This document shows, in pieces, positions 7,765-59,913 of a stretch of DNA of 64,000 nt. Source of the stretch: Patescibacteria group bacterium. GTDB taxonomy: Bacteria; Patescibacteriota; Microgenomatia; UBA8517. The notes under the pieces were generated by a model. That model saw nothing but the letters and a program-made list of their open reading frames with translations, was not told where the DNA came from and ran no database searches. A program made the translations under genes and the position numbers. The stretch covers positions 162,902 to 226,901 of the forward strand of contig JBGSJG010000008.1 of assembly GCA_041742135.1 (NCBI GenBank). The letters run 5' to 3'. The first letter of the stretch is position 1. Each line of letters opens with the position of its first letter.

Positions 7765-8467
7765 GCTTAAGTTCCAGCTCGGTTTTGTTCCCCGCCTCGT
7801 CAGTTGCCACAATTTTAAATATATTTTCTCCACCTTGAAGTGTTACGGGGAAGTTAAACTTGCCGTCGCTTCTGACGATCGCGATTCTGTCGTTTATTGT
7901 TACACGAGCATGTTGCTCGGATTGACCTTCGATTTGGATGTTTTTTTGATTTTGGCCAAATAAGCTTTTTCCGTTTTCTGGGGAAATAAGCTCAAGCACA
8001 GGCTCGGTCTTGTCTAAAACCACAGTAAATTTATCAGTTTCGGTGCTTTTTTGGCCTCTGTTGTCTTCAACTTGAGCATAAAGTGAATTTTCTCCGAGGC
8101 TTAAGTCAAACACGCTTGTGAACTCGCCATTTGCATTTGCGAGTACTTCTGTTTTGTCGTTATTAAAGAAGATGATTACATTCTGGCCAGCCTTAGTAGT
8201 CCCAGTAACTTTGAGCTTGTCTTGGTTTGTGTTTTTAGGAAGGGTGTTAATTGCTGGCGGCGGTGGCGGAGGAGTATTTGCAGTGTAGTCAACTCCAGAG
8301 CGCGTGATGTTGCCAGTCAAGCTTGTGAGCTTTGAAAGCGCGGGCACGCCAAAAATAGCCAATAAACCCACGGCAGCCACAGTCAGCACTATATAAAAAG
8401 CAGTTGACTTTACTGCTCGCCGTTCTTCAAGACGTTTTAGCCTGGATGGACGTGTGTTGTATGCCAT
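7748..8467 (-). CDS. Membrane-anchored surface protein with Pro-rich linker and Ig-like beta domains
   Basis: N-terminal TM, a PPPPPP linker and beta-rich repeats. No family assignment possible by eye. Confidence 0.45.
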   Translation of the reverse strand: MAYNTRPSRLKRLEERRAVKSTAFYIVLTVAAVGLLAIFGVPALSKLTSLTGNITRSGVDYTANTPPPPPPAINTLPKNTNQDKLKVTGTTKAGQNVIIFFNNDKTEVLANANGEFTSVFDLSLGENSLYAQVEDNRGQKSTETDKFTVVLDKTEPVLELISPENGKSLFGQNQKNIQIEGQSEQHARVTINDRIAIVRSDGKFNFPVTLQGGENIFKIVATDEAGNKTELELKLTYAQ

Positions 8468-8473
8468 ATGATG

Positions 8474-8546
8474 AGCCTACGGTCGGATTCGAACCGACGA
8501 CCCACGGTTTACGATACCGTTGCTCTACCAACTGAGCTACGTAGGC
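8474..8546 (-). tRNA. tRNA-Thr (anticodon CGU)
   Basis: The reverse complement folds as GCCTACG...CGTAGGC with anticodon loop ATCGTAA. Confidence 0.8.
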
Positions 8547-8579
8547 AATCTGCCATGATTGTAGCACAGCCACAAATTG

Positions 8580-8650
8580 AGCGGGATACGGGAGTCGAAC
8601 CCGTCTCTCCACCTTGGGAAGGTGGCATTGAGCCGCTCAACTAATCCCGC
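8580..8650 (-). tRNA. tRNA-Gly (anticodon CCC)
   Basis: The reverse complement folds as GCGGGAT...ATCCCGC+U73 with anticodon loop TTCCCAA and T-arm ACGGG-TTCGACT-CCCGT. Confidence 0.75.
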
Positions 8651-8677
8651 CTAAGTAAGATATTATATCAAAACTAC

Positions 8678-9376
8678 TTACAAGGCTGGGATTGTCAGCA
8701 CGTTACCTGCGTGAATTACACGAGGATTAACCAATTCATTTGCACTAGCAATTTCAGTCCATTTAAAGCCGTCTCCGTAAGCTGCTTCTGCAATGTCCCA
8801 CAAATTATCTCCGTGGACCACTGTGTACTCACTTCCTGCTTGAATGCTTGTCGTTGCCTCACCTATAACTGCTTCAGGTTGAGCTGTAATTTCTGGCTCA
8901 ACTTGGGCAATTGGTGCTAAGGTAGCGATTGGGCTTGGGCTAGGAGTAACTGTAGGTTCCGGTGTGATAGTGACAGCAGGTGTAGCTTCGGGAGCTTCGG
9001 GAGTAGTATTAGCTTCGGCCAAAGTATCTGTTATTGAGCGTACTTCGACGTCAGGTATTACTAATTCTTGTCCCTCAGCAATGTCATTTGGATTATTTAT
9101 GCTGTTTGCGTCCCTGATGTCAACCCAGTTGTACCCTGAACCATAAACCTTTTCCGAGATGCTCCATAGAGAGTCACCTGCGGCAACAGTGTATGAATCT
9201 GGCCTTCCTGCTTCTTCAGTTTGAGCGCCAGAAGGGAACGTTTGTCCCTCATCAAGGTTTCTGAAGTAGTTAACGACCAAAAGACCAACAACGACTATAA
9301 CTAGAAAGCCTAGAATTGTGCTAATTGTTGATTCGTGTAGTTTTAAATTTTTAAGAAAATCTTTTATTGCACTCAC
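8678..9376 (-). CDS. LysM peptidoglycan-binding protein (two LysM domains, N-terminal TM anchor)
   Basis: Two LysM repeats: YTVAAGDSLWSISEKVYG...ELVIP and YTVVHGDNLWDIAEAAYG...NVLTIP. Confidence 0.8.
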   Translation of the reverse strand: MSAIKDFLKNLKLHESTISTILGFLVIVVVGLLVVNYFRNLDEGQTFPSGAQTEEAGRPDSYTVAAGDSLWSISEKVYGSGYNWVDIRDANSINNPNDIAEGQELVIPDVEVRSITDTLAEANTTPEAPEATPAVTITPEPTVTPSPSPIATLAPIAQVEPEITAQPEAVIGEATTSIQAGSEYTVVHGDNLWDIAEAAYGDGFKWTEIASANELVNPRVIHAGNVLTIPAL

Positions 9377-9618
9377 CCCCTCAAACGGGGCAGTTTAAGT
9401 TCACTGAATTTAACTCAATAGGAGTACAAAGTCAATAGACGTTTTACCGAGTTTATGGGAATATATTGACAGATCTTCGTGAAAACGTGTGTGAAAAGGT
9501 TTCCATCAGAATTTAAAATGTTAATCGACAGAAAAAGTTGACTGTCATAGACTATAGGACTGTTTAATGTTATACTGCCTAGCGAAAAAGTCGGTATTAT
9601 AGACCCTTTCGCATAAAT

Positions 9619-10845
9619 ATGGAAATTCTTTTAAACACTATAACTGTACTATCTTGGATGTTACTATTTGGACTTGGAGCTAAAGTTTTTGTCTTTATAG
9701 TGCTGTCTGCAAAACATCATAAAATGTCTGCCCTCGGACGGAGACGGCTTGGAAAATACAGGCCGTTGGTTTCAATTTTAGTGCCGTCTTACAACGAAGA
9801 GCTCGTCTTGGAAAACTGCATTATAAGTCTTCTTAATCAAGATTATTCAAACACCGAGATAATAATAGTAGATGATGGGAGTAAGGACAAAACGAAGCAA
9901 ATTGGAAAAATGATAGCAAGGCTACACCACGGTAAGGTTAGGTTATATTCAAAGGTTAATGGTGGCAAAGCATCTGCTCTTAATTTTGGAATATCAAAGG
10001 CCAAAGGCGATATAGTTGTTAGTATGGATGCTGATTCCATGTTTTTGAGAAATGCGGTTAGGAATTTAGTCTTATCTTTCTATGACCCTAACGTTGTAGC
10101 AGTAGGCGGAAGCGTAAAAGTGGCAAATAGATCCAAATTTATTAACAAGCATCAGGCTGTTGAGTACATAACTGGTCTGAATCTGCAACGGCGCGCCTTC
10201 GCGTTTATGGGTTGTATGCAAGTAATTTCTGGTGCTATTGGAGCGTTTCGTAAGGATGTTATTGTTTCTATTGGTGGCTATTCTGAAGACACGATAGTAG
10301 AAGATATGGATGTTACTTTGTCGATGGCCATGACTGGTGGTGTGGTTGAGTACAATGGTAAGGCTATTGCTTACACGGAAGCCCCAGAGTCAATTAAGGA
10401 TTTCATTAAACAAAGATATAGGTGGACTTATGGCGGATTCCAGGTCCTTAAAAAACACAAGAATTTGATTTTCAATCGAAAGCATAATAGCCTTGGATTG
10501 GTTGGTATTCCTTACTTCATGATATTCCCGTGGATAGACGTGATGGTGAGTTCGCTGTTTGTGGTAGCAATCCTAAAGGTAATAGTCGGAGGAAATGTCC
10601 TTGAGTTAATGTTGTTTTATACATTTATGTGTTTAGTGCAAGGGTCTTTACTACTCTACTCGCTTGTGATGGACAAGGAGGACAAAAAATTGGTCTTTCT
10701 GGCAGGCATAGATAGTTTGTGGTATAACCATTTGATCAGCTTTATTACCGCTAAAGCTGCCTTCAATTTCCTTAGGGGTAGGGCTACGGGTTGGAACAAA
10801 CTTGTTAGATTGGGGAAGAATTACGCTCCATTATCCGCTTCGTAA
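9619..10845 (+). CDS. Processive family 2 glycosyltransferase (NodC/PgaC/IcaA-like polysaccharide synthase)
   Basis: N-terminal TM, SILVPSYNEE, DDGSKDKT, DADS, QRYRWTYGG (QxxRW) and C-terminal TM helices. Confidence 0.75.
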   Translation: MEILLNTITVLSWMLLFGLGAKVFVFIVLSAKHHKMSALGRRRLGKYRPLVSILVPSYNEELVLENCIISLLNQDYSNTEIIIVDDGSKDKTKQIGKMIARLHHGKVRLYSKVNGGKASALNFGISKAKGDIVVSMDADSMFLRNAVRNLVLSFYDPNVVAVGGSVKVANRSKFINKHQAVEYITGLNLQRRAFAFMGCMQVISGAIGAFRKDVIVSIGGYSEDTIVEDMDVTLSMAMTGGVVEYNGKAIAYTEAPESIKDFIKQRYRWTYGGFQVLKKHKNLIFNRKHNSLGLVGIPYFMIFPWIDVMVSSLFVVAILKVIVGGNVLELMLFYTFMCLVQGSLLLYSLVMDKEDKKLVFLAGIDSLWYNHLISFITAKAAFNFLRGRATGWNKLVRLGKNYAPLSAS

Positions 10846-18785: not shown

Positions 18786-20707
18786 CTCTTTGCATTCAGC
18801 CAAGCAATTACATGTTTCCAGCCAGGAAGAGCAAAATCTCGACTAAACTCGTTGTATCTTTCTTCTAAAAATATATTTAAATCAGTTTTGTCTTCGAGTA
18901 TGTGAGCGTAAACTGCCAAACAAGAGTTAAGATTTTCGTCTAGAAATTGTACATATTCCTCTGGGCTTGCAAAATCTTCTGGGTTTTGTAAGCCAATGTT
19001 AGTTATCCAAGGAGAGAATACAATTGCTCGTGAGACGTAGGTTTCCCAGCACGTATCAGTAGAATCTCCTAAAAAAGGTCGTATCTTTTCTTTATATTCA
19101 TCGGCAGAACGGTTAAGCTCGTCAACACTTGTGGTCCCGGTGTGTGGTAGGAGTTGCGGTATAGTCCAGTCGAGGCTGCCGATATCTAGCCCTGCTCCCG
19201 CAAGCCTTACAACCCAAGCTCCGTATGGTTCCACTGTTCCGTCATTAAAATCTTGAGCAGAGACCTCTCCTCCGGACATCCATTCTTGGTAGTGGCCATC
19301 CAAGTTGTTTAAAATATTTGCAACTTGCTCGCTAGTAGCTATACCCGTGTTTGCGTCTTCTTCTTGGTTTAGCCGCAATCTCCATCCACCAGACACGTTA
19401 ACTGCTGGGTTTACAAGAAAGTGTATTAGTTGATCAAAGCCATAGCCACTTAACCTAGTAAGAGTTGCGATTTCAGATTCGTTTAGTGCTCCTGACAGAT
19501 CTCGCGATTTGGTTTCATGCAAAACTGCCAACAATACTGAGCCTGCGGGCGCAATGGCGTTCAAGTGTGAGAAAGTTTGCCTAGATTGATCTGCGGACAT
19601 AGTCATAAGTTCTTCGATGTGCTCTTCTGACCCTTCGTAGGAGATACCAAGTTTGCGAGCTAGATTAGCAAGAGATTCCAACTCGGTTTTTGATATAACG
19701 GACTCTTGTTCTCTCATGACAGTAGAGCTGGCAAGAAATGAATTGGTTGCAATATCATCTCCAATTGACGCGATTTCTCCCGCAGATTCTATCGTACGAC
19801 TAAAAAGCTTAAACGTTTCTTTTAAAGGCGCGTTTTCGACAAGGTCTGTGAAATTTCCAGATCCATCAAACAACTCTAGCCAGTTTACTTGGGGATAATG
19901 TTTAAGCTCATGAAAAAAAACTTTTAAGAAATCACGATCAGTTTGAACTTCCACAGCCCTCTCTTGACGATGTGCGACGCCAGCATAAGACCCAACTGTC
20001 TCAGTTATATCAGCTGTCAACCGGACTTCCCGTAGGCCTGAGGCAATTACAGGGTATTTACCAACCAGGATATCCTCTTTTAAGACATTTGCTGTCTCAG
20101 TCCAAGAGTCGTTCCATTCTGGGTCGCTCGTCAAACGACTACTTGCTTCACCTAACGACACAGAGATTCCAATTGTCCCTCGAGCTTGTTCTCTTAGGTT
20201 TTCCAGGTGATTTGGATCAGGATAAAACCTATCATTTTCAAGTTTTTTAAGGACTTTAACAATCCTTTCGTGATCTTGACCTTCAATTGGCGTTTGTACT
20301 CGCCCGTCGAGCCTGTCCTCGATTAACGAGGACAAGTAAGCAATCTCGCGAAATATTGGAACGCGTAGTGTATGTTCTTGGTGAAAACCTTGCCGAATTT
20401 CTTTTAGTGCGTTAGCCGTGAGTTCTTTGATTTCGTTGAAATCAGCGATTGCGCTCTCTGTATGCCCTGGCTCTTCAAATATGTCTACAAACTCATCAGG
20501 CAAGCGGCTTATTGGCTTTTTTATAGTTTCAAAATCCTTATATATTTTCGTTCCCGGCTCCAAATCGTTTCCGTAGTCAGTTCTTACTTGAATTCTGTCC
20601 CATCCTGGGGAAGTATGATTTGGAAATTCTTCTGCTATGACTCCTTCGCTTTGTCTAAGACCCGGAATACGGCCTAAGACTAGGAGTGCCGCAGTATTTT
20701 TCCCCAT
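18782..20707 (-). CDS. Large hypothetical cytosolic protein (641 aa), no recognisable family
   Basis: Long uninterrupted ORF on the strand opposite to both neighbours. Acidic, with no TM or signal peptide. Contains an HELKH motif that may be chance. Confidence 0.55.
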
Positions 20708-45256: not shown

Positions 45257-45267
45257 TATAATTTTCG

Positions 45268-45510
45268 ATGAATTTTAATGAGCGGGATTTTTGCCCGTAT
45301 CGTGTTACTAGAGATACTATACAAGAGCCCAAATTTGGGGCTGTTATACCTTTGGATCAGATTCCCGGAGAGGGAATATGCAATCTGAGCAACGACCGCG
45401 AAACCCCATGTCTCTATCCTCGCAGTGCTGAACTCTGCCCACTAAAACGAAACATGGATTTATGTGATAAAAGTTGGGCGAAAGATGCGCCAGACGCTCA
45501 AAGTTTCTAA
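45268..45510 (+). CDS. Possible small Cys-rich protein (80 aa)
   Basis: ORF with five Cys residues in the gap after uvrC. Competes with an overlapping antisense ORF, so it is uncertain. Confidence 0.2.
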   Translation: MNFNERDFCPYRVTRDTIQEPKFGAVIPLDQIPGEGICNLSNDRETPCLYPRSAELCPLKRNMDLCDKSWAKDAPDAQSF

Positions 45511-45896
45511 GAATTTTTCTTCGTTGCCTTTCGGATTTCTTCCTCACTCATGCCAAAGTGATGGCCAATTTCGTGATAAAGAGTTGCCTTAATTTGTTTA
45601 ACCAGCTCTTCTTCGCTTCGGCTGGCAAACATTAATGGCTGCATAAACAGAGAAATTTTATCTGGCAGTGCACCTCCTACGCCGTATCGGCCTCGGCGAT
45701 TTTGAGGTACTCCTTCATATAACCCCAAAAGATTTACGTGTTTCTCGCGCAATTTGAATTTGACGACTTGCTCTTGTGTGGGGAAGTTTTCAAGGAAAAT
45801 ATTAACATTATCAAGACGACTTCGAAATTCTTCAGGCATCTGCTCCAGCGCCAAGGCGATCGCATGTCTGAAATATGCTTCAGTCTCTGGCATCAA
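45507..45896 (-). CDS. Zincin-like metallopeptidase family protein (DUF1025/Zincin_1-like)
   Basis: The C-terminal LYHEIGHHFGMSEEEI motif and the preceding LLGLYEG region are characteristic of this small putative Zn-peptidase family. Confidence 0.6.
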   Translation of the reverse strand: MMPETEAYFRHAIALALEQMPEEFRSRLDNVNIFLENFPTQEQVVKFKLREKHVNLLGLYEGVPQNRRGRYGVGGALPDKISLFMQPLMFASRSEEELVKQIKATLYHEIGHHFGMSEEEIRKATKKNS

Positions 45897-45927
45897 TAAG
45901 CAATCCTACCAGCGGAGTGATAGCGGG

Positions 45928-46971
45928 TCAAGATGAAACTTTTTCCCAGGGGAGGCCGTCTTTGCCAAAGTGTCCATATGCTGAAGTAAGGTGATACAAG
46001 GGCATCCTCAAATTGAGCTTTTTAATGATTTCCAAAGGACGAAAATCATACTTAGAAGTTACAATTTTTGATAAATTTTGCCCTTTTTCGTTTACCGCGG
46101 TAACCATCAAAGGCTCAGCCTTACCGATGGCGTACGATACAGATACAAGCACCTTTTTGCCATGGCCTTGGGCAACAAGGTTTTTGGCTGTATAGCGGCA
46201 CATGTATGCGGCTGATCTATCTACCTTGGTAGGATCTTTACCAGAAAAACAACCACCACCGTGTGGGATTAACCCGCCGTATGTGTCTACCATAATTTTT
46301 CGGCCAGTTAATCCTGTGTCTGCTGCAAAGCCGCCAAGAACGAAACTTCCTGTTGGATTAACCAAGATTTCAATCCCCACAGCACTCCCGACAATTGGTT
46401 TAATAAGCTTATTGATTAAGTATTTTCTAATCTCAGCCTGAGATACATCTTTTTTATGCTGGGTGCTAACAAGGACTGTTTTAACATGACCATTAGTAAT
46501 AGTTACCTGTGTTTTGCCATCCGGCATAAGCCAGTCTGCGTTTTTGCGAAGTGTTTCAAGCCCGTGAGCGAGCTTGTGAGCCAGAACTACCCCAAGCGGA
46601 AGGTACTCGGGGGTTTCATTCGTAGCATAGCCATACATAATTCCTTGATCTCCGGCTCCTCCAATATCAACGCCCTGTGCGATATCTGGTGATTGTTTCA
46701 CTATGTGTGAAATTATTTTCAGTCTGTCGCGATAACCGATATCCGAATATACTTTTTTGGCAATTTTTTCGGCTTCAAAGGTTGCGTTTGTTGTCACTTC
46801 GCCAGCAACTACCAGCAGTCCGTGGGCGCCTAAGCACTCGATAGCGACTCGGGATCTGGGGTCTTGGGCCAAACAAGCATCAAGCACTGCATCGGAAATC
46901 TGGTCGCATACTTTGTCGGGATGTCCGTTCGTCACAGATTCGACAGTGTAGGTTTTATATTGAGGAATCAT
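45928..46971 (-). CDS. metK: S-adenosylmethionine synthetase
   Basis: YTVESVTNGHPDKVCDQISDAVLDA, GAGDQGIMYGYA and GGGCFSGKDPTKVDRSAAY motifs. Confidence 0.9.
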   Translation of the reverse strand: MIPQYKTYTVESVTNGHPDKVCDQISDAVLDACLAQDPRSRVAIECLGAHGLLVVAGEVTTNATFEAEKIAKKVYSDIGYRDRLKIISHIVKQSPDIAQGVDIGGAGDQGIMYGYATNETPEYLPLGVVLAHKLAHGLETLRKNADWLMPDGKTQVTITNGHVKTVLVSTQHKKDVSQAEIRKYLINKLIKPIVGSAVGIEILVNPTGSFVLGGFAADTGLTGRKIMVDTYGGLIPHGGGCFSGKDPTKVDRSAAYMCRYTAKNLVAQGHGKKVLVSVSYAIGKAEPLMVTAVNEKGQNLSKIVTSKYDFRPLEIIKKLNLRMPLYHLTSAYGHFGKDGLPWEKVSS

Positions 46972-47068
46972 GTATCTTTCTATTTAAGCTAGATTTGGCA
47001 CCGCTCTTTTCAAAGAAGGTTGCCGGTGGGTCATCGGGCTAGTTCCCTCGCCACACTCTTGATACTTA
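46972..47068 (-). promoter_or_regulatory. SAM-I (S-box) riboswitch in metK 5' leader
   Basis: The minus strand reads GTATCAAGAGTGTGGCGAGGGAACTAGCCCGATGACCCACCGGCAACC...AAGAGCGGTGCCAAATCTAGC...GATAC. This matches the SAM-I consensus blocks AUCAAGAG, GAGGGA, GCCCGAUGA, GGCAACC and GGUGCCAAAUC. The P1 3' strand GATAC abuts the ATG. Confidence 0.75.
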
Positions 47069-47091
47069 CTAATTCAGTTTAGTCGCAATTT

Positions 47092-47796
47092 TTATAAAGT
47101 CAAATACTTCTTGCGCGTATTTTCAGGAAATCTTTCAATTGCATAACGAAGTGTGGTTCTCGGAAGCTTACGAATGTGTTTGGTTAGAAAAGCCTCAAGA
47201 GCTTTTTGGTCCTTTTTGCCAGCTTCACGCAAAGCCCAGCCAACAGCTTTATGCATCAAGTCCTCGTGGTCGCCTAAAAGCATTTCGGCTATTTTATAAG
47301 TGTCCTCAGTTTGATTTTCGCGTAAAAAAGCAAAGGTGGAAACAATCGCGATTCGGCGCTCCCAAAGCGAGCTCGATTTGGCAAGCTTATACAAAATTTT
47401 TCGGTCACCATTTAGTAAATACTTGCCCACAATTTTGTGGCAAGTTACATCCACCAAATCCCAATTGTTCACATGCTTAGTGTTAGCAAGATAAAAATCA
47501 AAAATCAGCTTTTGGTCAAGATACCGTTTTTCAAACTGATCCACCAAAATTAAAAGCCCAATCATCCGCTCTTCATGATATGGGGACCCTAGCAAGGTCT
47601 TAATGTCTGTAAGAGAAAGGGCTGGGTACTTTTTGGCGATAGCTCTCATTTGGGGAACTGTATGGCCTAAAAAAACATCACCAAATCCGTATTGGCCTTC
47701 ACCTGTTTTAAAGAATCTCTGAGAATGCTGGGCACGAATTGGATCACCTTGGGATCGTATATCTTTTTGGATTTGAAGAAGTGCCATTTTATTCAA
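47092..47796 (-). CDS. DNA alkylation repair glycosylase (AlkD/AlkC-like HEAT-repeat family)
   Basis: HEAT-like repeat protein with DPIRAQHSQRFFKTGEGQYGFGD...ERMIGLLIL...NNWDLVD typical of PF08713. Confidence 0.7.
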   Translation of the reverse strand: MNKMALLQIQKDIRSQGDPIRAQHSQRFFKTGEGQYGFGDVFLGHTVPQMRAIAKKYPALSLTDIKTLLGSPYHEERMIGLLILVDQFEKRYLDQKLIFDFYLANTKHVNNWDLVDVTCHKIVGKYLLNGDRKILYKLAKSSSLWERRIAIVSTFAFLRENQTEDTYKIAEMLLGDHEDLMHKAVGWALREAGKKDQKALEAFLTKHIRKLPRTTLRYAIERFPENTRKKYLTL

Positions 47797-48532
47797 ACCT
47801 GACTGGAATTTCTAGTGCGTCATCGTTTTCGGGAAGCCCAGAGGGGTTATCCTTTTGAAGTATCAAAGCCCCGCGCTTACTAAAGTCTGCATCCCAGCTC
47901 GGGTTTTCAAAAGTAAGTGTTGCGCGAAAAGCTACAAATTCTTCAGTCATCCATTCGTCTTGGGCCTGCGCTATTCCCTCAGCAATAATTTTCCCATCCC
48001 AATCAGTTAAAACAATTGGGAAAGATGCTTCAAAAAACCAAGTCCCGCGTGCCTCACCTCGTATCTCAAGCGGGCTCGCTATAACTTGGTTTGGTTGTGG
48101 ATTTTGAACAGTAATTAAATCATTTTTAGCCTCAGGTGTGTGGGAGGTGTCGTCTACCGAGATAATGCCTTCGATATCATAAATTTTCCAGTGATCAGTG
48201 CTAAGTAGTTCAATCGGCGTAAATCTTCCTGTGATGTTTGTCGCCTGTCCCGCCTGAAAAATCGATGGATCAGCATTTGCTCCAAAATCCAATGCGTAAT
48301 ACTCACCATTTTCCGTTTTTAAGCCAAACGCGCATTCCATGGTGATAGGTCCCGAGGTATCGCGATGGGGAAGACAAACATACTCGCCACTTAGGCTTCC
48401 GTCATAGGGCAAGACATGCTCACTGTCAGCTTGTTTTTGATTGTAAATAAATTGGTTAAAAGTAAAGAAGGCAAACACTGCTGAAGCCGCAAGACCTAAA
48501 AATGCAAAAATAATTACAACTTTCTTATACAT
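47789..48532 (-). CDS. Secreted/anchored protein with C-terminal Gmad2-like Ig domain
   Basis: N-terminal TM. The C-terminal SPLEIRGEARGTWFFEASFPIVLTDWDGKIIAEGIAQAQDEWMTEEFVAF resembles the GerM-associated Ig-like domain. Confidence 0.45.
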   Translation of the reverse strand: MYKKVVIIFAFLGLAASAVFAFFTFNQFIYNQKQADSEHVLPYDGSLSGEYVCLPHRDTSGPITMECAFGLKTENGEYYALDFGANADPSIFQAGQATNITGRFTPIELLSTDHWKIYDIEGIISVDDTSHTPEAKNDLITVQNPQPNQVIASPLEIRGEARGTWFFEASFPIVLTDWDGKIIAEGIAQAQDEWMTEEFVAFRATLTFENPSWDADFSKRGALILQKDNPSGLPENDDALEIPVRFE

Positions 48533-48535
48533 AAG

Positions 48536-49081
48536 TTAGCGAATTGTCATGTCCTGAGTATTTGTGTTGAAACACTCCGGGATCATGCTTGTGGGAAAGC
48601 TGGGATATGAAGCTATGTCTTCACAAGTGATTATTCCATTGCCATCCCAAACAAGTTGCCACACGCCGTTAGTTTTTGCCGCAAACCACATGCCGCCTCC
48701 CATTCCTTCCTCGCTTGCTCCTCCTTGTGCATAATTGCCCTCGATTTTACTAACACTTACATTTAATCCTTGGGCATTTTGGCCGTGCTTAGCTATCAAA
48801 GCTGTTTTAATTCGTGTCTTTATAAGTTCAAGCTCCTTTTCCTGATTTTCAGCAATGCAAGGAGTTTCCCAAGGGCGCAGACATTCTTTTTTTGCTTCGC
48901 ACCATGAGTATCCAGCGGACAAAATACAGCCATGTTCGTCACGGTCACTTCCTAGAAGATTCTCTGAAGCTTCTGTGGCTTCCGGGGTCGGGACACTAGT
49001 CTGCGACTGCTTCAGAAGTGCTAAGCCTGCAAAAACTAATATGGCTATAATGATTGCTGGTACGATTTGTTTTATTTTCAT
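48536..49081 (-). CDS. Hypothetical secreted protein (N-terminal TM/signal, Cys-containing)
   Basis: ORF with a signal anchor, co-directional with its neighbours. Confidence 0.4.
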   Translation of the reverse strand: MKIKQIVPAIIIAILVFAGLALLKQSQTSVPTPEATEASENLLGSDRDEHGCILSAGYSWCEAKKECLRPWETPCIAENQEKELELIKTRIKTALIAKHGQNAQGLNVSVSKIEGNYAQGGASEEGMGGGMWFAAKTNGVWQLVWDGNGIITCEDIASYPSFPTSMIPECFNTNTQDMTIR

Positions 49082-49374
49082 TTTTTCTTTTTAAGCCCCC
49101 AGCTCCAGTGAGGTTTCTCGCCAGTTTTAAAGCATATTGCGATAAGAACAATGACTCCTAAAGCTAGCTTTGCGTAATAATCAACCAGTATGGTGTTGTT
49201 CAGTTCAGCTTCTACTGGGAGTGCGGAGCTGATCCACAAAAGATAGCCAAGGAAGATTGCGATTATTGCCCATCCTTGCCATGTTGCTGGTGTCCATCCC
49301 CAGCCATAGAGCTTGGCGCGAAACCAATAGCCTTTGGGGTTGTCCTTTATATATTTAATGTAAGACGCAAACAT
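49078..49374 (-). CDS. Small membrane protein (98 aa, Trp-rich)
   Basis: Two predicted TM helices. Its start overlaps the upstream gene by 4 nt. Confidence 0.35.
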   Translation of the reverse strand: MFASYIKYIKDNPKGYWFRAKLYGWGWTPATWQGWAIIAIFLGYLLWISSALPVEAELNNTILVDYYAKLALGVIVLIAICFKTGEKPHWSWGLKKKK

Positions 49375-49398
49375 AATTAATTATACTCCTTGGTACAA

Positions 49399-50040
49399 TT
49401 AATTCACTTTAAAGCTTAATATGCTTTTGTAAGCTTCCCTGGGGTCAAGAGTTGCTCCACTGTCGCCGCCAGAGTAGTAGCCAAGTAAATAAACATTTTC
49501 GTTAGAGTCAAAAATAAAGCGAGTCTCGGTAGTGCCTGCGGGAAACTCCCAAGGCCGCGTGTTTTCAAATACTTTGGCGCGCCCAGAATTAAAGCTGACT
49601 TCATCTACTAATGTGTAGGTAAACCAGTCGCCAAGATCAGGAACATCACCAGAAGCCAGATTCACACTATCGCCGATATTTGTAAGTGCAATAAGCTTAT
49701 TGAATTGCTCCGCATTGTAGTTGTATACATCGCCAAGAGCATCTCTCTTGTCCGGAGTTACTACAGATACATAAATAAAATTGGTTGGCCCTGCTCCAAG
49801 AGGCTGTTCTTTGGGATAAAAAAGCTTTGAATAATCTGACTGTTTTTCAGAAGTCATCGAGTTGGGAATATATATTTCATAGCCAAAATCAGGATCGGTA
49901 TAATTTGGCTCCAGTTCAGAAGAAGCACTAGAAGGCTCGGGGCTTGGCGGCGTGCTAGGCGTTGTCGGCTTGGTAACAAAAAATACCACTAGTACCAACA
50001 AAGCCACAGCTCCCAGAATTACGACAATAATCTTATTCAC
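49399..50040 (-). CDS. Hypothetical secreted protein (213 aa)
   Basis: N-terminal TM and a Pro/Ser/Thr linker, then a globular domain. Confidence 0.4.
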   Translation of the reverse strand: MNKIIVVILGAVALLVLVVFFVTKPTTPSTPPSPEPSSASSELEPNYTDPDFGYEIYIPNSMTSEKQSDYSKLFYPKEQPLGAGPTNFIYVSVVTPDKRDALGDVYNYNAEQFNKLIALTNIGDSVNLASGDVPDLGDWFTYTLVDEVSFNSGRAKVFENTRPWEFPAGTTETRFIFDSNENVYLLGYYSGGDSGATLDPREAYKSILSFKVN

Positions 50041-50072
50041 GAAAAAATTATAACATGAAAACGAGCGACATT

Positions 50073-50867
50073 TTAGTTATTTTCTGGTGATCTGAGGCTT
50101 TCAGCAAGGGCACGCCCAGTTTCATATCCAACCACATCTGTGCCATGGACACTCCCTTCGTGACGACATATGTTATATCTTAGTACTCTTGTCGCTTCCG
50201 GAATTGCCCACGACAAAGTGTCGATAGGTTTACCGCTTACTCTTCCGATCACCGAATCTATTTCCATTTGTCTTCCGGCTCCAACCAAACAAGCCTCCAA
50301 AAGATGATAGACATCACCTGCTGGATCCTTTGCAGTATATCGCGAGTTATACGCCATGCTTACAGACACGGCTTTTTGCCAAGCTTTCATCTGACGGGCA
50401 GTGACTGGAAAGGTAACTCTGGTGTCCTGGGCGCGCGCCATCTGTCTTGTTGCTGCTGCTAGTGTTATGAGAGCATTAGCAAAATTTCCGTCTGTTACTT
50501 CGAGTGCTGTTTCATAAAGACCTGCCACATTAACTGGCCCGTCTTTTGATTGTGCAAGAACACTTGAGACAAATGCGAGCGAAGCTTCCCGGTCAATATC
50601 AAAACCCAATGGAAGTCTGTGGAAATCAGTAAAACATGCTGCAAAAGCAAGTGCGCTTGTGCCAGATGGCATGTTGCCTATTTCACGAACTTTTGGATTG
50701 AGGCTTACCAAATCTTCAAATATTCGTTCTGGACTGATGCAATATTCAGAAGGCACGCCGGGGGAATCAGGTTTGATTACTTTTTGAAGTCTGTCTGGAT
50801 ATTTAATTTTTGCGCCATAAAGGATTGCGACAGGGGAAGTAACAAATCCTTCAAGTTCTTTCAGCAT
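50073..50867 (-). CDS. Hypothetical protein (264 aa) in GC-rich islet
   Basis: Long ORF with by-eye GC clearly above the flanks. No family recognised. Confidence 0.5.
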   Translation of the reverse strand: MLKELEGFVTSPVAILYGAKIKYPDRLQKVIKPDSPGVPSEYCISPERIFEDLVSLNPKVREIGNMPSGTSALAFAACFTDFHRLPLGFDIDREASLAFVSSVLAQSKDGPVNVAGLYETALEVTDGNFANALITLAAATRQMARAQDTRVTFPVTARQMKAWQKAVSVSMAYNSRYTAKDPAGDVYHLLEACLVGAGRQMEIDSVIGRVSGKPIDTLSWAIPEATRVLRYNICRHEGSVHGTDVVGYETGRALAESLRSPENN

Positions 50868-50923
50868 TTTATTACAAACGCCAGATACCTATAGTGTACC
50901 ACTATGAACCCAGAAGAGTATAA

Positions 50924-51442
50924 TTGGCCATGAGCCTAGTTGATCGATTGGCAGAAATACGTGGTGGCTATAAAGTTGCAGTTTGCCGTAACTCGAGCTG
51001 TCAAGGCTGTGCTGATTTTGCCAATAAGCTTCGAAGTAGTGCAAGTGGCCAAGAAGCACTTGATATGCGGTTTCCAGAGGGAAGTTGTGTCCACGATCCT
51101 TTTTCTGATGTTGAGCATGGAGGTGTTCGTGTTTGCTTGCGCAAAAACAGGGCAACTGTTCCTTCAGCCGTGGCTGATGGGCAGATAGATTCATCAGGCA
51201 CCACCGTGGCTGCCCACATCGGAGTAATACGTGACCCAGAAGAGAGAGGGAAAGGGTATGGAAGGATCGTCGTGATGGCACTAGCCCACGAGCTTAAGCG
51301 TAGAGGAGTTGCCGAGGTATGCGCAGAGATCGATGCTGAAAATTCTGGATCTCAGAAAATGGCATTCGCACTTGGAGCAACTCAAGATCTCGATTGCGTT
51401 GTTGACGAAAAAGATGTCGTGCGTTTTTTAAGAAAGCTTTAA
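50924..51442 (+). CDS. GNAT family N-acetyltransferase
   Basis: Motif A/B region VIRDPEERGKGYGRIVVMALAHELKRRGVAEVCAEIDAENSGSQKMAFALG. The true start may be downstream of 50924. Confidence 0.55.
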   Translation: MAMSLVDRLAEIRGGYKVAVCRNSSCQGCADFANKLRSSASGQEALDMRFPEGSCVHDPFSDVEHGGVRVCLRKNRATVPSAVADGQIDSSGTTVAAHIGVIRDPEERGKGYGRIVVMALAHELKRRGVAEVCAEIDAENSGSQKMAFALGATQDLDCVVDEKDVVRFLRKL

Positions 51443-51472
51443 TCGGAGTCTCCAATATACTACAATGATTCT

Positions 51473-51877
51473 ATGAAACGAATACTTCGCATTATTGTAA
51501 TAGAACTTGCGGCTTTGTATCTTACAACCCAGATTGCTTCAGGACTCGTGTTTGCTAACCAGCTTGAGGGCATTTTAATTACTTCAGTGGCTTTGGGAAT
51601 TGCCATGCACCTACTCAAACCCATCATTAACTTATTGCTTCTTCCCATAAACTTGGCAACATTTGGACTATTTAAAATTGTGGGCCACGCTATTACTGTC
51701 TTTATTGTTGATGTGGCTCTGACGCAGTTTGAAGTTGCTGGTTTTAACTTTCCGGGCATGACAACCCAGCTTTTTGACCTACCACCAATTGTCCTTGAAA
51801 AAGGCCCGTTGTCGTACCTTGCGTTTGCAATTGTTATTTCTGCAATTACCGGAATTATTAACTGGCTTCGAAAGTAG
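51473..51877 (+). CDS. Small polytopic membrane protein (phage-holin-4/DUF360-like)
   Basis: Four predicted TM helices, 134 aa. Confidence 0.4.
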   Translation: MKRILRIIVIELAALYLTTQIASGLVFANQLEGILITSVALGIAMHLLKPIINLLLLPINLATFGLFKIVGHAITVFIVDVALTQFEVAGFNFPGMTTQLFDLPPIVLEKGPLSYLAFAIVISAITGIINWLRK

Positions 51878-51889
51878 CTCTATAGTATA

Positions 51890-52111
51890 ATGAGCCCGAT
51901 GCATAATTTTCTCTTATTTTTTCAAATTATTATTTCAATTTTATTAATTGCCGTTGTCCTTCTTCAGGTCAAAGGAACTGGTTTTGGTCGTGTGTGGGGC
52001 GGGCTTTCTACAAGTAGCACGCGCCGGGGCTTGGAGGGAGTTATTTTTAAATTCACCTTCGTTTTAGTGTTTCTATTCATTATAATTTCACTGATCTCTT
52101 TATTAAGCTAA
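51890..52111 (+). CDS. secG: Preprotein translocase subunit SecG
   Basis: Two TM helices flanking VLLQVKGTGFGRVWGG, which matches the SecG LLQxGKG...FGG loop. Confidence 0.65.
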   Translation: MSPMHNFLLFFQIIISILLIAVVLLQVKGTGFGRVWGGLSTSSTRRGLEGVIFKFTFVLVFLFIIISLISLLS

Positions 52112-53430
52112 TGCGCATTCGATTTCGCTATTGGTTCCGCCTGATTGGAGCTTTTTTGGTTCGTTTTCGAGTCGTTTTGTTTGCAAGTGTGGTTTTTGGC
52201 CTTCTTTTCTTCGCCTTTTTGACTTACATAATGCCTCGAGCTTTTTCATCTAGCACAGAGTATGTAGGAGTAACTGGCAGATACAGAACCGACGAGCTAC
52301 CTGTTTCGATATTAAGCTTGGTAGGGGAGGGACTAACTAAAATTTCAGAGGACGGATCAGTTGTGCCGGGCTTGGCCGAAAGCTGGGAGACAAGTGAAGA
52401 TGGAAAAGTGTGGACTTTTCACCTAGCGCTCGGGCGATCTTGGCACGACAAATCACCAGTGACCGCAAGCACTATTCAGTATTCTTATGAGGACACCACG
52501 ATTGAGCGACCAGACGAGAAGACGGTTCGATTCATATTAAATTCACCATTTTCCCCATTTGCAGCCGTGGTTTCTCGGCCAACATTTAAACGTGGGCTTT
52601 TGGGCACAGGTGAGTGGAAAGTAACAGCAGTGAAACTTGCGTCACAGTATGTCGAGCGCATTACTTTAAAAAATGACAAGAACCAAAAACGGATAATCCG
52701 CTTTTTCCCGACCGAGGAAGGTACAAAAAATGCCTACATGCTTGGCGAGATTGATACTATTGCGGATGCTATTGATCCTGCGCCATTTGACTCATGGGTT
52801 AATTCTGAAATTTACGAGCACGTTCGCCGTGACCGAATAGTTGCTGTATTTTTTAATAACGAAGCTGAAGCTTTTAAAGGCCCGGGAAATAAGCCTTTGC
52901 GCCAAGCTCTTTCCTATGCCATCGAAAAAAACCAGTTCAAAGGCCCGAGGGCTTTAGGGCCAATCTCCCCAGAATCATGGGCTTATAATCCGCTCGTCAA
53001 AGACTATGCATACGATCTTGAGCGAGCACGCGAGCTTGTAAAAGATATTTCTGGCGTTGAAATTAATCTAACCACCACGCCTTCACTATTGCCAGTTGCT
53101 GAGACAATCGCAAACTCATGGAAAGAAATCGGCGTCACCACTAATGTTCAAGTTGTTTCAGTGTTGCCTGAGGACTTCCAGGCGTTTTTGGCAATTTATG
53201 ATATTCCACGCGATCCAGATCAATATGCTTTTTGGCACACGACTCAAACTTCCACCAATATCTCAAATTATTCAAACCCCAGAATCGACAAACTTTTGGA
53301 AGATGGCCGAGTTACCTTGAATCAGGAAGAGCGCAAGAAAATTTACCTTGACTTCCAGCGCTTTTTATTAGAAGATGCTCCTGCGGTGTTTCTTTATCAT
53401 CCGATTAGCTTTGAGATACACCGGAAGTAA
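52111..53430 (+). CDS. Family 5 extracellular solute-binding protein (ABC-type, peptide/nickel class), N-terminal TM anchored; no cognate permease/ATPase adjacent
   Basis: GLTKISEDGSVVPGLAESWETSEDGKVWTFHLALGRSWHDKSPVTASTIQYSY is a textbook SBP_bac_5 N-lobe. Confidence 0.65.
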   Translation: MRIRFRYWFRLIGAFLVRFRVVLFASVVFGLLFFAFLTYIMPRAFSSSTEYVGVTGRYRTDELPVSILSLVGEGLTKISEDGSVVPGLAESWETSEDGKVWTFHLALGRSWHDKSPVTASTIQYSYEDTTIERPDEKTVRFILNSPFSPFAAVVSRPTFKRGLLGTGEWKVTAVKLASQYVERITLKNDKNQKRIIRFFPTEEGTKNAYMLGEIDTIADAIDPAPFDSWVNSEIYEHVRRDRIVAVFFNNEAEAFKGPGNKPLRQALSYAIEKNQFKGPRALGPISPESWAYNPLVKDYAYDLERARELVKDISGVEINLTTTPSLLPVAETIANSWKEIGVTTNVQVVSVLPEDFQAFLAIYDIPRDPDQYAFWHTTQTSTNISNYSNPRIDKLLEDGRVTLNQEERKKIYLDFQRFLLEDAPAVFLYHPISFEIHRK

Positions 53431-56494: not shown

Positions 56495-57700
56495 TTAAAT
56501 TTGGCTAAGCACCCTTTTAATTACTTGTATATTTTGGTCAAGATATGCTTGGCTTTCTAGCCATTTTTCTTCAATTAAGCCAAGATGACCTAGATTTCTA
56601 AAATATCGCTGAACTACCCAACTAGCGACTTTTGGTAGTGAGTCTAGTTCTTCTTTTGGGTTTCCAGAGCGAATAGTTGATTCCGGATTTTTATATCTCC
56701 CGCCCCACTCGAAATCAAAAAATCTCAAGTCTGCTGATGTGTCTTTGGAGATACTTCCAGATACCCAAGAGGTAAGAGGATGCGAGAACCCAGTGGCTTT
56801 AAGGGCGCTTACGATATTGATTGCCTGAGAAATTTCTATCTCAGATATAAGTCTGTGTAGTAAAGCGCTTTGCTGGCCCGTGAGTTTTTCCCGTCCCACC
56901 AGAAGAGCAAACAAATGGCTCGCTTCACCTGTGGTTAATCCAGCATTTTTGCAACAATCGCCAATTTGAGGGTTTTCGGTGCATTCGATCGCTAAGTTGT
57001 TTAGCCCAACAAAGAACTCGTCTTGCTCAATGGACTTTTTTGCTACTTCGTTCGGATCAGCAATTGTACTGGTAAGCCGCTGTCTTGCGCCACTAAGCCG
57101 AAAAAGAATTGCTAATTCATCCCCATTTAGTTTTACGCTATTTATGTTATCAATTATTGTACTGACATTAAAACGGCCTTGTCTCCAGTTATTTTCCATG
57201 AATTTTAAAATTTCTCTAGAATCTAAAATCACGTAACCCAGAGCTAGAGAGGCACGGACCCCATGCTTAAGTAGCGTGTTGCTGGTAGCTATGTCTGATG
57301 CGGCGTCAAAATCTCCAAAAAAACCTATGGGGTCGATATCTGACTCGACATACCGCGATCGGACGGCGTCAGCGTATTTTAAGCCAGAAACAAAACCTCC
57401 TTTAGCAGTAACCCAGTTTGCCCGCATCCCTGAGTACGAAACTGTATCGGGATTTAGAGTTGCTACTGGGACAGATCTTCCTTCGGAGGTGAGAGCATGC
57501 TTTATGGTAGAGTTATTTCTGCGTGTGTTACGAACACTCATTAGGCACGAGCCTTCAAGATATTCCGAGCTCGCAAAGTACCAGTTTTCCGGCGCCAAAA
57601 ACAATCTCGCATCAGTATTAACAACTGTTAGCTTGATCGCCTCGGGCGGCAAAGGCATGGTCGCCACCTCAATACCTCCATATTTTGTTCGCTCCCTCAT
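56495..57700 (-). CDS. Hypothetical protein, paralog A (401 aa) of tandem pair; unknown family
   Basis: Shares collinear blocks with paralog B: YSG..AN..TAKGG, DP.GFFGDFDAASDI, AILFRL.G.R.RLTS and F.FEWGG. Separated from B by 3 nt. Confidence 0.55.
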   Translation of the reverse strand: MRERTKYGGIEVATMPLPPEAIKLTVVNTDARLFLAPENWYFASSEYLEGSCLMSVRNTRRNNSTIKHALTSEGRSVPVATLNPDTVSYSGMRANWVTAKGGFVSGLKYADAVRSRYVESDIDPIGFFGDFDAASDIATSNTLLKHGVRASLALGYVILDSREILKFMENNWRQGRFNVSTIIDNINSVKLNGDELAILFRLSGARQRLTSTIADPNEVAKKSIEQDEFFVGLNNLAIECTENPQIGDCCKNAGLTTGEASHLFALLVGREKLTGQQSALLHRLISEIEISQAINIVSALKATGFSHPLTSWVSGSISKDTSADLRFFDFEWGGRYKNPESTIRSGNPKEELDSLPKVASWVVQRYFRNLGHLGLIEEKWLESQAYLDQNIQVIKRVLSQI

Positions 57701-57703
57701 ATT

Positions 57704-58939
57704 TTAGGTGACTAGCTCTCGGGATAGCTTGGCAGCATAATAATCTTGATCTTCCTGTAGGCGATCGAAGCTTTCCTGGGAGATCGATAAAAGGCCTAAT
57801 CTTTGAAGGTTTGAAATAAACTCTTCCACCATGCTTTTGGTTAAAAAACTCACATCATCTTGTGAATCAAATATTCCAGTGTCAATGTCCGAACTTGAGT
57901 CTGGTTCTTTATGATCCGGGCCCCACTCTAAATCGTGCAAAACTAAATCCTTCGAAATATCTTTGCAGCCAAGCCAGCTCCCATAGTTACGGACAGGATA
58001 AGCAAAGCGTGAATCCTCCATGGTTTTGAATAAGACGATTCCTTGGGCTATTGAAATTTCCCAAACTAACCTATGTATGTCTAGTGTTTCCTGTAAGTCA
58101 AGCGCCTGCATTCTGGACAATTTGCCTAGAATTTCTTGTGCCTTTTTTGGCTCTAATCCTGCTTGTTCAATATATTTAGTAATTCTTGGGTTGGAATAAA
58201 CCTCGTTTTCTAAATTGCTAAGACCTAGTGCTAATTCATTTCTGTTGGCAGAATTTGCACTTAGATCGTCCCCGCGAGTTGACCCAGATGTTAATCTGTG
58301 TCGTGATCCTATTAGCCTAAATAAAATAGCAGGCTCGTCCCCGTATTGGCTAACTAATTCATATTGTTGTTTTATAACGGCTCTGTTTGCGTTTGCGTCA
58401 TTCCACATAGACTCCACAACACCTAAAATCGCTTCTTTGTTGAGTGTGACGTAGCCCAAGCCTAACGTTGCTCTTCCTCCCATTTCTAAAATCTTGTTAG
58501 TATGAAAGATGTCACTAGCCGCGTCAAAATCGCCAAATAAACCCAAAGGGTCTGCCTCGGGCCCCCGATAAAGCTTTGGCTCGCTTGAGAGCAAAAAATC
58601 CCGATAAGTGTCTCCTGCCATGCCGCCACCTTTAGCAGTTATGTAATTGGCATTGAGCCCAGAGTATTTAACGGGTGCTTTAAAGCGAGCGACCGGCAAA
58701 CTTCTTCCCTCACCGAGCAGCGAATGGATTCTTTCGTGTGATCCCGGCCTTGGTTCTACTGAAATTCTTGCAAGGCTTGACAGGTAATCGGGATCAAGCA
58801 AGGCGTGATTGCTGGCATCTAGGTATGCTCTTGCTTCATGGTTTACAACAATCTGGGAAATTGCATCGCGAGGCAGGGGAATGGTTGATACCTCAACGTA
58901 CCCCCTTTCAAATTTTGGCAATCTATCTATACCACACAT
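57704..58939 (-). CDS. Hypothetical protein, paralog B (411 aa) of tandem pair; unknown family
   Basis: See paralog A. Conserved acidic motif GLFGDFDAASDI and Gly-rich ITAKGGGMAGD. Confidence 0.55.
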   Translation of the reverse strand: MCGIDRLPKFERGYVEVSTIPLPRDAISQIVVNHEARAYLDASNHALLDPDYLSSLARISVEPRPGSHERIHSLLGEGRSLPVARFKAPVKYSGLNANYITAKGGGMAGDTYRDFLLSSEPKLYRGPEADPLGLFGDFDAASDIFHTNKILEMGGRATLGLGYVTLNKEAILGVVESMWNDANANRAVIKQQYELVSQYGDEPAILFRLIGSRHRLTSGSTRGDDLSANSANRNELALGLSNLENEVYSNPRITKYIEQAGLEPKKAQEILGKLSRMQALDLQETLDIHRLVWEISIAQGIVLFKTMEDSRFAYPVRNYGSWLGCKDISKDLVLHDLEWGPDHKEPDSSSDIDTGIFDSQDDVSFLTKSMVEEFISNLQRLGLLSISQESFDRLQEDQDYYAAKLSRELVT

Positions 58940-58944
58940 AAATA

Positions 58945-59913
58945 GTGGTCGTTATTATAGCAATAGCGCGTAATTTATGCCATGATCAAGGACAAAACGG
59001 TTGTATCGGCATACTTGCTCCTAACATGGAATTGAATAATCGACTCAGGAGGATTAAAATACATTCTGTGCCAGAAGCAACCGAAAGAAAAATGGATGAC
59101 CAAAGAGTAGCTGAAATCGTAGAGATAGCAAAGCGGTGTAGGCGACCCATAAAAAAGGGTTCTATTAGTGTGTGTATCGACGATCGATTGGCCCATAAAT
59201 TTACCAAGCCAATTCCGACCGAGCAGCTTCAAGAGGTTTTTGTAACAAGTGAGAGTGAATCTGGGCCACAAATACCTGGAGCCTCAGCAGGAGTCTTGGT
59301 AGCGGTTGCAGAATGTGCCCCTGACGAAAAAAGCTTGGACTTTGATGAATTGAATACGATCACTCGCGAAGCACATGTTCGCGCGGGATTCGCATTGGGT
59401 GTTCATATGGATAATCATCACGATGAAGTTTCGGATGATAAAATTTTTGAAATGGTTGAAAGAGCGTTGGAAGACCCAGACAACACGGACCTTCCCGGTT
59501 GTGGCTACGCTGGTATGCTGGTCAATCCGGAAAACCCTCTGAATTTAAGCGCAAGGACGCACAAATTTGTTCGAAGTTTAAAGTTAGTTCCACGCATGTT
59601 AGCTGCCGGATCAAGGCTTGTTGAGCTAGAGGGACATCATGCTGAGCCAGACAACGGGGCGCTTGCAATAATTAATAATCAAGAAGGAACCACGCTTGAT
59701 CATGATGCGCTCAAGGCAGCAGGTGTTAAAGTGTATGGATTTGACCCTCGCGCAGTCGAAAAAATTATGAACGAGGCTGTCGAGGTTTTGGAAGCAAGAG
59801 GTGAAACTGATTGGGCAGAGAATGTTCGTAACAAGGGAGCTCAAGTCGTTACTCAACACCAGAGAATTGCAGCAGTAGCGCTGACAGGCCGTGAACCTGT
59901 TGAAATTGCTTGA
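58945..59913 (+). CDS. Hypothetical protein (up to 322 aa; start probably at an internal ATG near 59026 or 59092)
   Basis: ORF divergent from the paralog operon, acidic, no family. The ORF-track start lies 5 nt from the paralog B start, so it is probably over-extended. Confidence 0.4.
   Translation: MVVIIAIARNLCHDQGQNGCIGILAPNMELNNRLRRIKIHSVPEATERKMDDQRVAEIVEIAKRCRRPIKKGSISVCIDDRLAHKFTKPIPTEQLQEVFVTSESESGPQIPGASAGVLVAVAECAPDEKSLDFDELNTITREAHVRAGFALGVHMDNHHDEVSDDKIFEMVERALEDPDNTDLPGCGYAGMLVNPENPLNLSARTHKFVRSLKLVPRMLAAGSRLVELEGHHAEPDNGALAIINNQEGTTLDHDALKAAGVKVYGFDPRAVEKIMNEAVEVLEARGETDWAENVRNKGAQVVTQHQRIAAVALTGREPVEIA

Follow-up and report, generated by a model that had tools for sequence, protein, structure and literature searches.

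The DNA considered here is a 64,000-nucleotide (nt) window, positions 162,902 to 226,901 of contig JBGSJG010000008.1 (GenBank assembly GCA_041742135.1), from an uncultivated bacterium of the Patescibacteria, also known as the Candidate Phyla Radiation (CPR); all positions below count from the first letter of this window. At 50073 to 51442 two genes face away from one another, one encoding a 264-residue protein (u264) and the other an acetyltransferase of the GNAT superfamily. An original prediction, made by eye, had taken the pair for a GC-rich islet acquired by horizontal transfer, and possibly for a resistance or modification module or a toxin-like acetyltransferase with its partner. Both open reading frames (ORFs) that it called are present: the first occupies 50073..50867 on the minus strand and encodes 264 amino acids (aa) from an ATG start, and the second occupies 50924..51442 on the plus strand and encodes 172 aa from a TTG codon, or 170 aa from the ATG at 50930. 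The features of the pair are listed here, where A1 denotes an alignment of 41 sequences of the u264 family.

50073..50867, minus strand: u264, from a rare Patescibacteria family that has not been characterised; by prediction soluble and all-alpha
50418..50447, minus strand: motif 1 of u264, R141-x2-A144-R145-x2-D148-x-R150 (from A1)
50298..50327, minus strand: motif 2 of u264, D181-x2-G184-D185-x-Y187-H188-[FL]-[WLF] (from A1)
50115..50180, minus strand: motif 3 of u264, R230-Y-x9-H241-x2,3-D244-x2-G247-x3-G251 (from A1)
50868..50929, no strand: divergent intergenic spacer, read directly from the sequence
50930..51442, plus strand: GNAT-fold N-acetyltransferase of 170 aa, an orphan with a divergent N-terminal half (Pfam and PDB matches)
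51245..51262, plus strand: GNAT motif A, R106-G-K-G-Y-G111, the acetyl-CoA pyrophosphate-binding loop (codons read directly)

The divergent arrangement and its spacer of about 56 nt are likewise confirmed, the distance being 56 nt from the TTG and 62 nt from the ATG at 50930, which is the GNAT start called in public records (P0002). The start of u264 at 50867 is supported because the initiating Met is invariant in A1. The arrangement of the genes is not an assembly artefact, since an independent Logan assembly (run SRR28170474) matches 2,413 nt across the junctions of u264, GNAT, the downstream holin-like gene and SecG with 100% identity. The spacer sequence at 50868-50923 has a G+C content (GC) of 35.7%, and the two genes may share a promoter within it; a promoter consensus scan listed none in the spacer at its threshold. 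The spacer also contains a 6+3+6 palindrome (ATAGTG-TAC-CACTAT, 50891-50905), of a size expected by chance, and a perfect TATAAT at 50919-50924 that ends 5 nt before the GNAT ATG and is not significant by itself; given this placement, the GNAT mRNA would be leaderless or nearly so. No Shine-Dalgarno sequence is evident ahead of either gene.

The 264-aa protein belongs to a family that has so far escaped annotation. As the original prediction had it, this is a gene without a known function: u264 matches no Pfam, NCBIfam, PADLOC or PHROG model, and no Pfam, NCBIfam or PADLOC match recurs among 41 family members. A word-indexed homology search returned only u264 itself, and an exhaustive HMMER search of 1.84 billion representatives yielded 46 proteins at E<=1e-3, of which 25 reached E<=1e-10, the best at 39% identity (E 7e-49). 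Two entries (P0032 and P0049) are repetitive, low-complexity false positives, which leaves about 44 credible distant relatives, with full-length members of about 260-305 aa. The family profile found nothing meaningful among PDB sequences; matches of u264 to FaeG/K88 fimbrial and designed helical-repeat sequences in the PDB were not significant.

Nine residues are invariant in A1 (M1, F79, R141, Y187, H188, R230, H241, G247 and G251) and ten are near-invariant (L122, A144, R145, D148, W163, D181, G184, D185, G196 and D244). In motif 1, R141 is invariant, A144, R145 and D148 occur in at least 90% of the sequences, and R150 is a majority residue only (consensus DxR); in motif 2, Y187 and H188 are invariant, with D181, G184 and D185 in at least 90%; and in motif 3, R230, H241, G247 and G251 are invariant, with D244 in at least 90%. 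For two members the source is named: MCX6706024.1 is from Candidatus Woesebacteria and BCX14886.1 from a Patescibacteria group bacterium (AP024680.1). Both are 30-33% identical to u264 over the full length and share its invariant R, Y, H and G residues, but they are annotated as 'hypothetical protein' only and are hence uninformative on function. The others were recovered from metagenome assemblies (JGI, ENA, Logan); one of their records bears the label groundwater. The family is thus rare and, among its named members, restricted to the Patescibacteria.

It had also been supposed that the pair lies in no homologous context. This does not hold for u264, as relatives keep members of its family beside Zincin_1, UvrC, DNA_alkylation, Gmad2 or the SecG/SBP block. 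The window itself reads UvrA, Transglut and UvrC on the plus strand; Zincin_1, metK, DNA_alk, Gmad2, u181, u98, u213 and u264 on the minus strand; and GNAT, holin-like gene, SecG and SBP on the plus strand. The flanking strings and the corresponding gene orders in relatives, each named by its locus, are as follows.

45507..50040, minus strand: string downstream of u264, comprising u213, u98, u181, Gmad2, DNA_alkylation, metK and Zincin_1 (Pfam, Rfam)
51473..53430, plus strand: string downstream of GNAT, comprising the PF04020 membrane protein (51473-51877), SecG (51890-52111) and SBP_bac_5 (52111-53430) (Pfam)
L006-L009 (P0006): PDDEXK_1, 201 aa, Zincin_1, u264 homologue; convergent with UvrC and Transglut_core
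L011 (P0008): Zincin_1, u264 homologue
L010 (P0007): u213, NERD, u181, further genes, divergent u264 paralogue (minus strand), PDDEXK_1, DNA_alkylation, u264 homologue, Gmad2
L027 (AP024680.1): UvrA, Transglut, UvrC, holin-like gene, SecG, SBP_bac_5, 85 aa, LytR_C, u264 homologue

The genes of the minus-strand string are companions of the u264 family in these relatives. By tblastn, L010 encodes counterparts of u213 (68% identity), u181 (56%), DNA_alk (56%) and Gmad2 (55%), and L006-L009 encode Zincin_1 at 63%. Neighbouring genes in L006, L007 and L010 are 55-68% identical to those of the window, as against 37.5-38% for the u264-family member; in L027, where the homologue lies 2.3 kb from the holin-like/SecG/SBP/UvrC block, most neighbours are 41-47% identical, with UvrA at 68% in its C-terminal part, and the u264 homologue is 30% identical. 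The family therefore stays within a few kilobases of the same landmarks and diverges in step with its neighbours, though faster, which argues for vertical descent with local shuffling. More distant members adjoin varied genes (FMN_dh, M23 peptidase, Amidase_3, SpoU methylase and a pilin-like gene), and no functional partner of the family is conserved across the contexts examined.

Several further observations concern the history of the family at these loci. L010 contains two members 1.6 kb apart, at 7604-8428 (minus strand) and 10001-10798 (plus strand); the second, a paralogue matched by the profile at E 1.7e-25 but not by u264 in tblastn, is very divergent. Their presence points to a local duplication in the family. 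In the window, a profile search of six-frame ORFs of at least 50 aa found no second copy or remnant. Between UvrC and Zincin_1 the window has an 80-aa Cys-rich ORF (45268-45510, plus strand) that has no Pfam match and shares 4 nt with the 3' end of the Zincin_1 gene; the closest relative (L006/L007) has its u264-family member in this slot, and the profile search found no family remnant there in the window. In the same relative a defence-like cluster lies beside Zincin_1 and the family member (L006 529-4712, L007 987-2896), composed of RhuM, GmrSD_N/HNH, a Gp49 and HTH toxin-antitoxin pair and PDDEXK_1, and L010 has NERD and PDDEXK_1 at the corresponding place. This lineage thus seems to have a variable hotspot beyond UvrC.

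The case for an islet had rested on base composition, which was evaluated against the 64,000-nt window, with z-scores relative to windows of equal length, and, for codon positions, against the 50 window genes of at least 150 aa. The GC of the window is 43.3% and that of the genes flanking the pair 41-45%. The predicted rise of GC above the flanks is real in so far as a small local peak exists, centred on GNAT, the highest-GC gene of the 50; its size had been overestimated, the two ORFs having 45.2% (u264) and 48.6% (GNAT) rather than values in the low-to-mid 50s against 40%. For u264 this is unremarkable (z 0.84, with 21.5% of equal-length windows as high), for GNAT it lies in the top 1.8% (z 1.95), and for the pair together, at 46.1%, in the top 6.8% (z 1.6); the sole stretch at 50% GC is 51000-51399, with 50.5%. 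The similarity of tetranucleotide usage to that of the window follows the same pattern, being unremarkable for u264 (z -1.23) and mildly low for GNAT (z -2.07, bottom 3%), and the correlation of the pair falls in the bottom 1.9%. Regions near 8-10 kb, 19 kb and 58.6 kb deviate at least as much as GNAT does. The lowest similarities of all (correlation 0.60-0.65) belong to 8000-10000, which includes three tRNA genes, and 18800-20400, both more deviant than the reported islet.

GC was also resolved by codon position. At first positions (GC1) GNAT ranks 1 and u264 ranks 6 among the 50 genes, and at second positions (GC2) u264 ranks 1 and GNAT 2, whereas at third positions (GC3) u264 has 0.325 (rank 49/50) and GNAT 0.357 (rank 44/50), against a mean of 0.392. 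The excess is confined to codon positions 1 and 2 and GC3 is low; the GC bias therefore stems from amino-acid composition. Both proteins contain much Ala, Arg and Val, and the GNAT much Gly besides, whereas Lys, Ile and Asn are scarce in them. Homologues of u264 in L004, L005, L007 and L010 are above average for their own neighbours in GC2 and in combined Ala, Gly, Arg and Pro content, although only in L007 is the homologue the highest among the listed neighbours; since the homologues share it, the bias is partly a trait of the u264 family. Compared with the other genes of the window, the codon usage of both genes is typical, with synonymous-codon likelihood z-scores of +0.84 (u264) and +0.51 (GNAT) against a window mean of -0.08 (standard deviation 1.08). 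The proposed step from a compositional jump to horizontal acquisition accordingly loses its basis: no jump of that magnitude exists, the synonymous sites are native, and the slightly raised GC of both genes probably reflects proteins rich in Ala, Gly, Arg and Val and poor in Lys, Ile and Asn, not foreign DNA.

The plus-strand ORF is a GNAT acetyltransferase, as proposed: it exceeds the gathering cut-offs of three Pfam models, PF13302 (26.5 bits against 25.4), PF00583 (25.7 against 20.7) and PF08445 (24.0 against 22.1), and it carries the RGKGYG motif. The margins are small and the matches cover residues 92-154 only. Its best sequence matches in the PDB, RimI and YncA, are limited to residues 97-152. 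R106-G-K-G-Y-G111 fits the motif A consensus R/Q-x-x-G-x-G/A, the acetyl-CoA binding loop between beta4 and alpha3, and in the alignments it falls on the corresponding loop of RimI (5isv) and of YncA (3dr6). The protein thus resembles the superfamily in its C-terminal half (beta4-alpha3-beta5-alpha4), in the R-x-x-G-x-G loop and in the single-domain length of 170 aa, but its N-terminal ~90 residues match nothing. Relative to RimI and AAC(6'), the alignment offsets give it 11-30 extra N-terminal residues, and the sequence is compatible with a complete single domain whose substrate-side, N-terminal half has diverged. Such an enzyme would move the acetyl or acyl moiety of an acyl-CoA onto an amine of its substrate.

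Function-specific NCBIfam models (RimI, AAC(6'), ArsN1 and MshD) all score the GNAT far under their cut-offs. Assignment to RimI was rejected at 14.5 bits against 86.4 and 15.6 against 173 (TIGR01575 and PRK09491, respectively), and assignment to the AAC(6') resistance enzymes at 22.9 bits against 300 for the best model, AacA48, and 12-16 against 140-310 for the others. A word-indexed search of 5.8 billion proteins returned only the protein itself; a metagenome scan found matches around motif A only, within residues 89-166, and no full-length relative; and tblastn against plasmids and against the relatives' loci found none, the resulting orphan status being based on searches less sensitive than the exhaustive HMMER search used for u264. 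The GNAT is also Cys-rich, with seven Cys residues (4.1%, compared with 0.6% in window proteins), of which the cluster C19-x4-C24-x2-C27 near the N-terminus could bind a metal; this region also shows weak similarity to two small PHROG families that lack a known function (E 0.002 and 0.017).

GNAT lies 30 nt upstream of, and co-directional with, the holin-like (PF04020)/SecG/SBP string, no terminator is predicted in the 30-nt gap, and the gene is probably co-transcribed as the first of this string. In AP024680.1 (L027 11975-13755), UvrC is followed directly, after a gap of 35 nt, by the holin-like gene, SecG and SBP_bac_5. In the window a mostly minus-strand block of ~6.2 kb (45257-51472), from Zincin_1 to u264 plus GNAT, is placed between UvrC and the holin-like gene. 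Relative to AP024680.1 this block is an insertion or an inversion breakpoint, and GNAT sits at its right-hand junction.

We consider it likely that u264 and GNAT are both native to the chromosome, independent of one another and adjoining at a local rearrangement breakpoint, and that they form neither an acquired islet nor a functional module. On this account u264 would have been inherited vertically and would evolve fast, within a small family of ~265-aa soluble all-alpha proteins of the Patescibacteria. That both genes arrived together as a horizontally acquired GC-rich islet is very improbable. The pair does resemble genomic islands and islets in forming a local GC maximum and in including one lineage-specific gene, GNAT, at a synteny breakpoint, and its joint GC (top 6.8%), its tetranucleotide correlation (bottom 1.9%) and the two highest GC2 values of the window would fit such an origin. 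It differs, however, in its native codon usage and GC3, and in the vertical inheritance of u264, which taken alone is compositionally unremarkable and whose family occupies the same Patescibacteria neighbourhood with a divergence that tracks its neighbours; the compositional bias is partly a family property. Island boundaries are missing as well. The flanking direct repeats that an island might have left amount to chance matches, the repeats around the pair, direct or inverted, being short (12-25 nt), imperfect and scattered. The four tRNA genes of the window all lie at 4.6-11 kb (10.9 kb being the nearest to the pair), so that none falls within 35 kb of it, and a scan of ORFs between 36 and 63 kb revealed neither an integrase nor a transposase domain. 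The region is instead core chromosome, with UvrB, UvrA, Transglut_core, UvrC, metK and its SAM riboswitch, SecG, cyclophilin and ATP synthase.

Equally little credence can be given to a functional module co-regulated from the shared spacer, be it one in which the GNAT is a toxin and its partner an unconventional antitoxin, one in which a resistance acetyltransferase works with an accessory enzyme, or one in which u264 or its substrate is modified by the GNAT. The divergent layout across 56-62 nt, the poor characterisation of both genes and the fact that the weak best NCBIfam matches of the GNAT are AAC(6') models would be in keeping with one, but those matches score 12-23 bits against cut-offs of 140-310. 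Among the loci surveyed for pairing (L004-L013, L020-L025 and L027-L028), no GNAT stands beside a u264 homologue in any of 10 other distinct contexts, the second L010 copy being counted separately. The known TacAT, AtaRT, KacAT and ItaRT modules are co-directional operons in which a DUF1778/RHH antitoxin of ~90 aa is encoded upstream of the GNAT toxin. They share with our pair a small GNAT beside a gene of unknown function, but here the neighbour is 264 aa long, all-alpha, divergent and kept without a GNAT in relatives. It has no RHH/DUF1778 domain, and the other neighbour of the GNAT is the PF04020 membrane protein. PADLOC has no match for the pair, and the GNAT is co-directional with housekeeping genes 30 nt away. 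The suggestion of a resistance or modification module, or of a toxin-like acetyltransferase, is thus not borne out.

A more serious alternative, though still an unlikely one, concerns GNAT alone, which may have been acquired horizontally long ago, or inserted in this lineage only, where the rearranged minus-strand block meets the holin-like/SecG/SBP operon; its GC3 would since have ameliorated, and codon positions 1 and 2 would retain the signature of a higher-GC donor. Several points weigh in its favour and against two native genes. GNAT deviates mildly in composition (first of the 50 genes in GC and GC1, second in GC2 with a native GC3; GC in the top 1.8% and tetranucleotide similarity in the bottom 3%), and the two genes of highest GC2 are adjacent, for which the chance expectation is roughly 4%. 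No full-length relative appeared in the word-indexed search or the metagenome scan, and the gene is absent from AP024680, where UvrC abuts the holin-like gene, and from L006-L010, an absence that holds for the neighbourhood only, as at most 17 kb per relative was examined. Because GNAT has no detectable orthologue and lies exactly at the synteny breakpoint, it is accounted for equally well by an ancient transfer followed by amelioration. u264, moreover, is placed differently in each relative, and its family is represented by two paralogues in L010; strict orthology of u264 is therefore not proven; the functions of both genes, finally, are ones that we infer. On the other side, the codon usage of GNAT is typical (z +0.51) with GC3 below the mean, the site has no repeats, tRNA or mobility genes, and no donor lineage was found, since nothing resembles the protein. 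A fast-diverging native GNAT paralogue would look identical, and high GC1 and GC2 with native GC3 are equally expected of a native protein rich in Ala, Gly and Arg. By the refuting conditions set out with the original prediction, acquisition is refuted for u264 and only half refuted for GNAT, whose native codon usage stands beside the lack of an orthologue in the relatives' neighbourhoods; a native origin of both genes remains the explanation that we favour.

What u264 does can be approached from its predicted structure. AlphaFold2 modelled the sequence alone poorly (predicted local distance difference test, pLDDT, 36.8), and with A1 as input it returned a confident model of 12 helices (pLDDT 91.3, predicted template-modelling (TM) score 0.91). 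Foldseek comparison of this model gave a best E of 0.73 and TM below 0.25 against the PDB, and a best E of 0.88 against the predicted viral structures of BFVD; as predicted, the fold would thus be one without a solved relative in the PDB. The invariant Arg, His, Asp and Tyr residues of the family resemble a catalytic site, which suggests an enzyme; most likely, if with low certainty, its substrate would be anionic or phosphorylated.

Specific assignments of u264 were tried and rejected. A PAP2/acid phosphatase, prompted by the R...GxxH...R..H..D order of residues and by noise-level matches, shows neither profile nor fold similarity (hhalign probability 0.65%). A class I terpenoid/geranylgeranyl diphosphate (GGPP) synthase was suggested by an IdsB match (E 0.026, 13.6 bits against a cut-off of 475) found in 1/41 members; with Foldseek TM values of 0.19 or less this is noise. 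Membership of the family in a defence system found no recurrent PADLOC match.

Two other features of the window may be recorded. A SAM (S-box, S-adenosylmethionine) riboswitch (RF00162, 64 bits, 46969-47068, minus strand) lies directly upstream of metK (45928-46971, minus strand), a textbook arrangement. Further along, tandem paralogues of 401 and 411 aa (56495-57700 and 57704-58939, both on the minus strand) are 38% identical over 375 residues (E 6e-75); both lack a Pfam domain, as does the adjacent divergent ORF of 322 aa (58945-59913, plus strand).

The analysis yields a useful negative, in that the rise in GC seen by eye came from amino-acid composition, and nothing points to a resistance gene, toxin or mobile element. 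Its positive gain is that a small family of Patescibacteria hypothetical proteins has been delimited, with an alignment, candidate catalytic residues and a confident model. It is tempting, if rather doubtful, to go further and propose that u264 defines an enzyme family confined to the Patescibacteria, whose all-alpha fold and active site of invariant Arg, His, Asp and Tyr residues would both be new, and which would have been kept near UvrABC/SecG while outpacing its neighbours in evolution; in the boldest version the orphan Cys-rich GNAT would be functionally tied to u264 in this organism. CPR bacteria are rich in such dark-matter proteins, and the u264 family offers a tractable target for structural and biochemical work.

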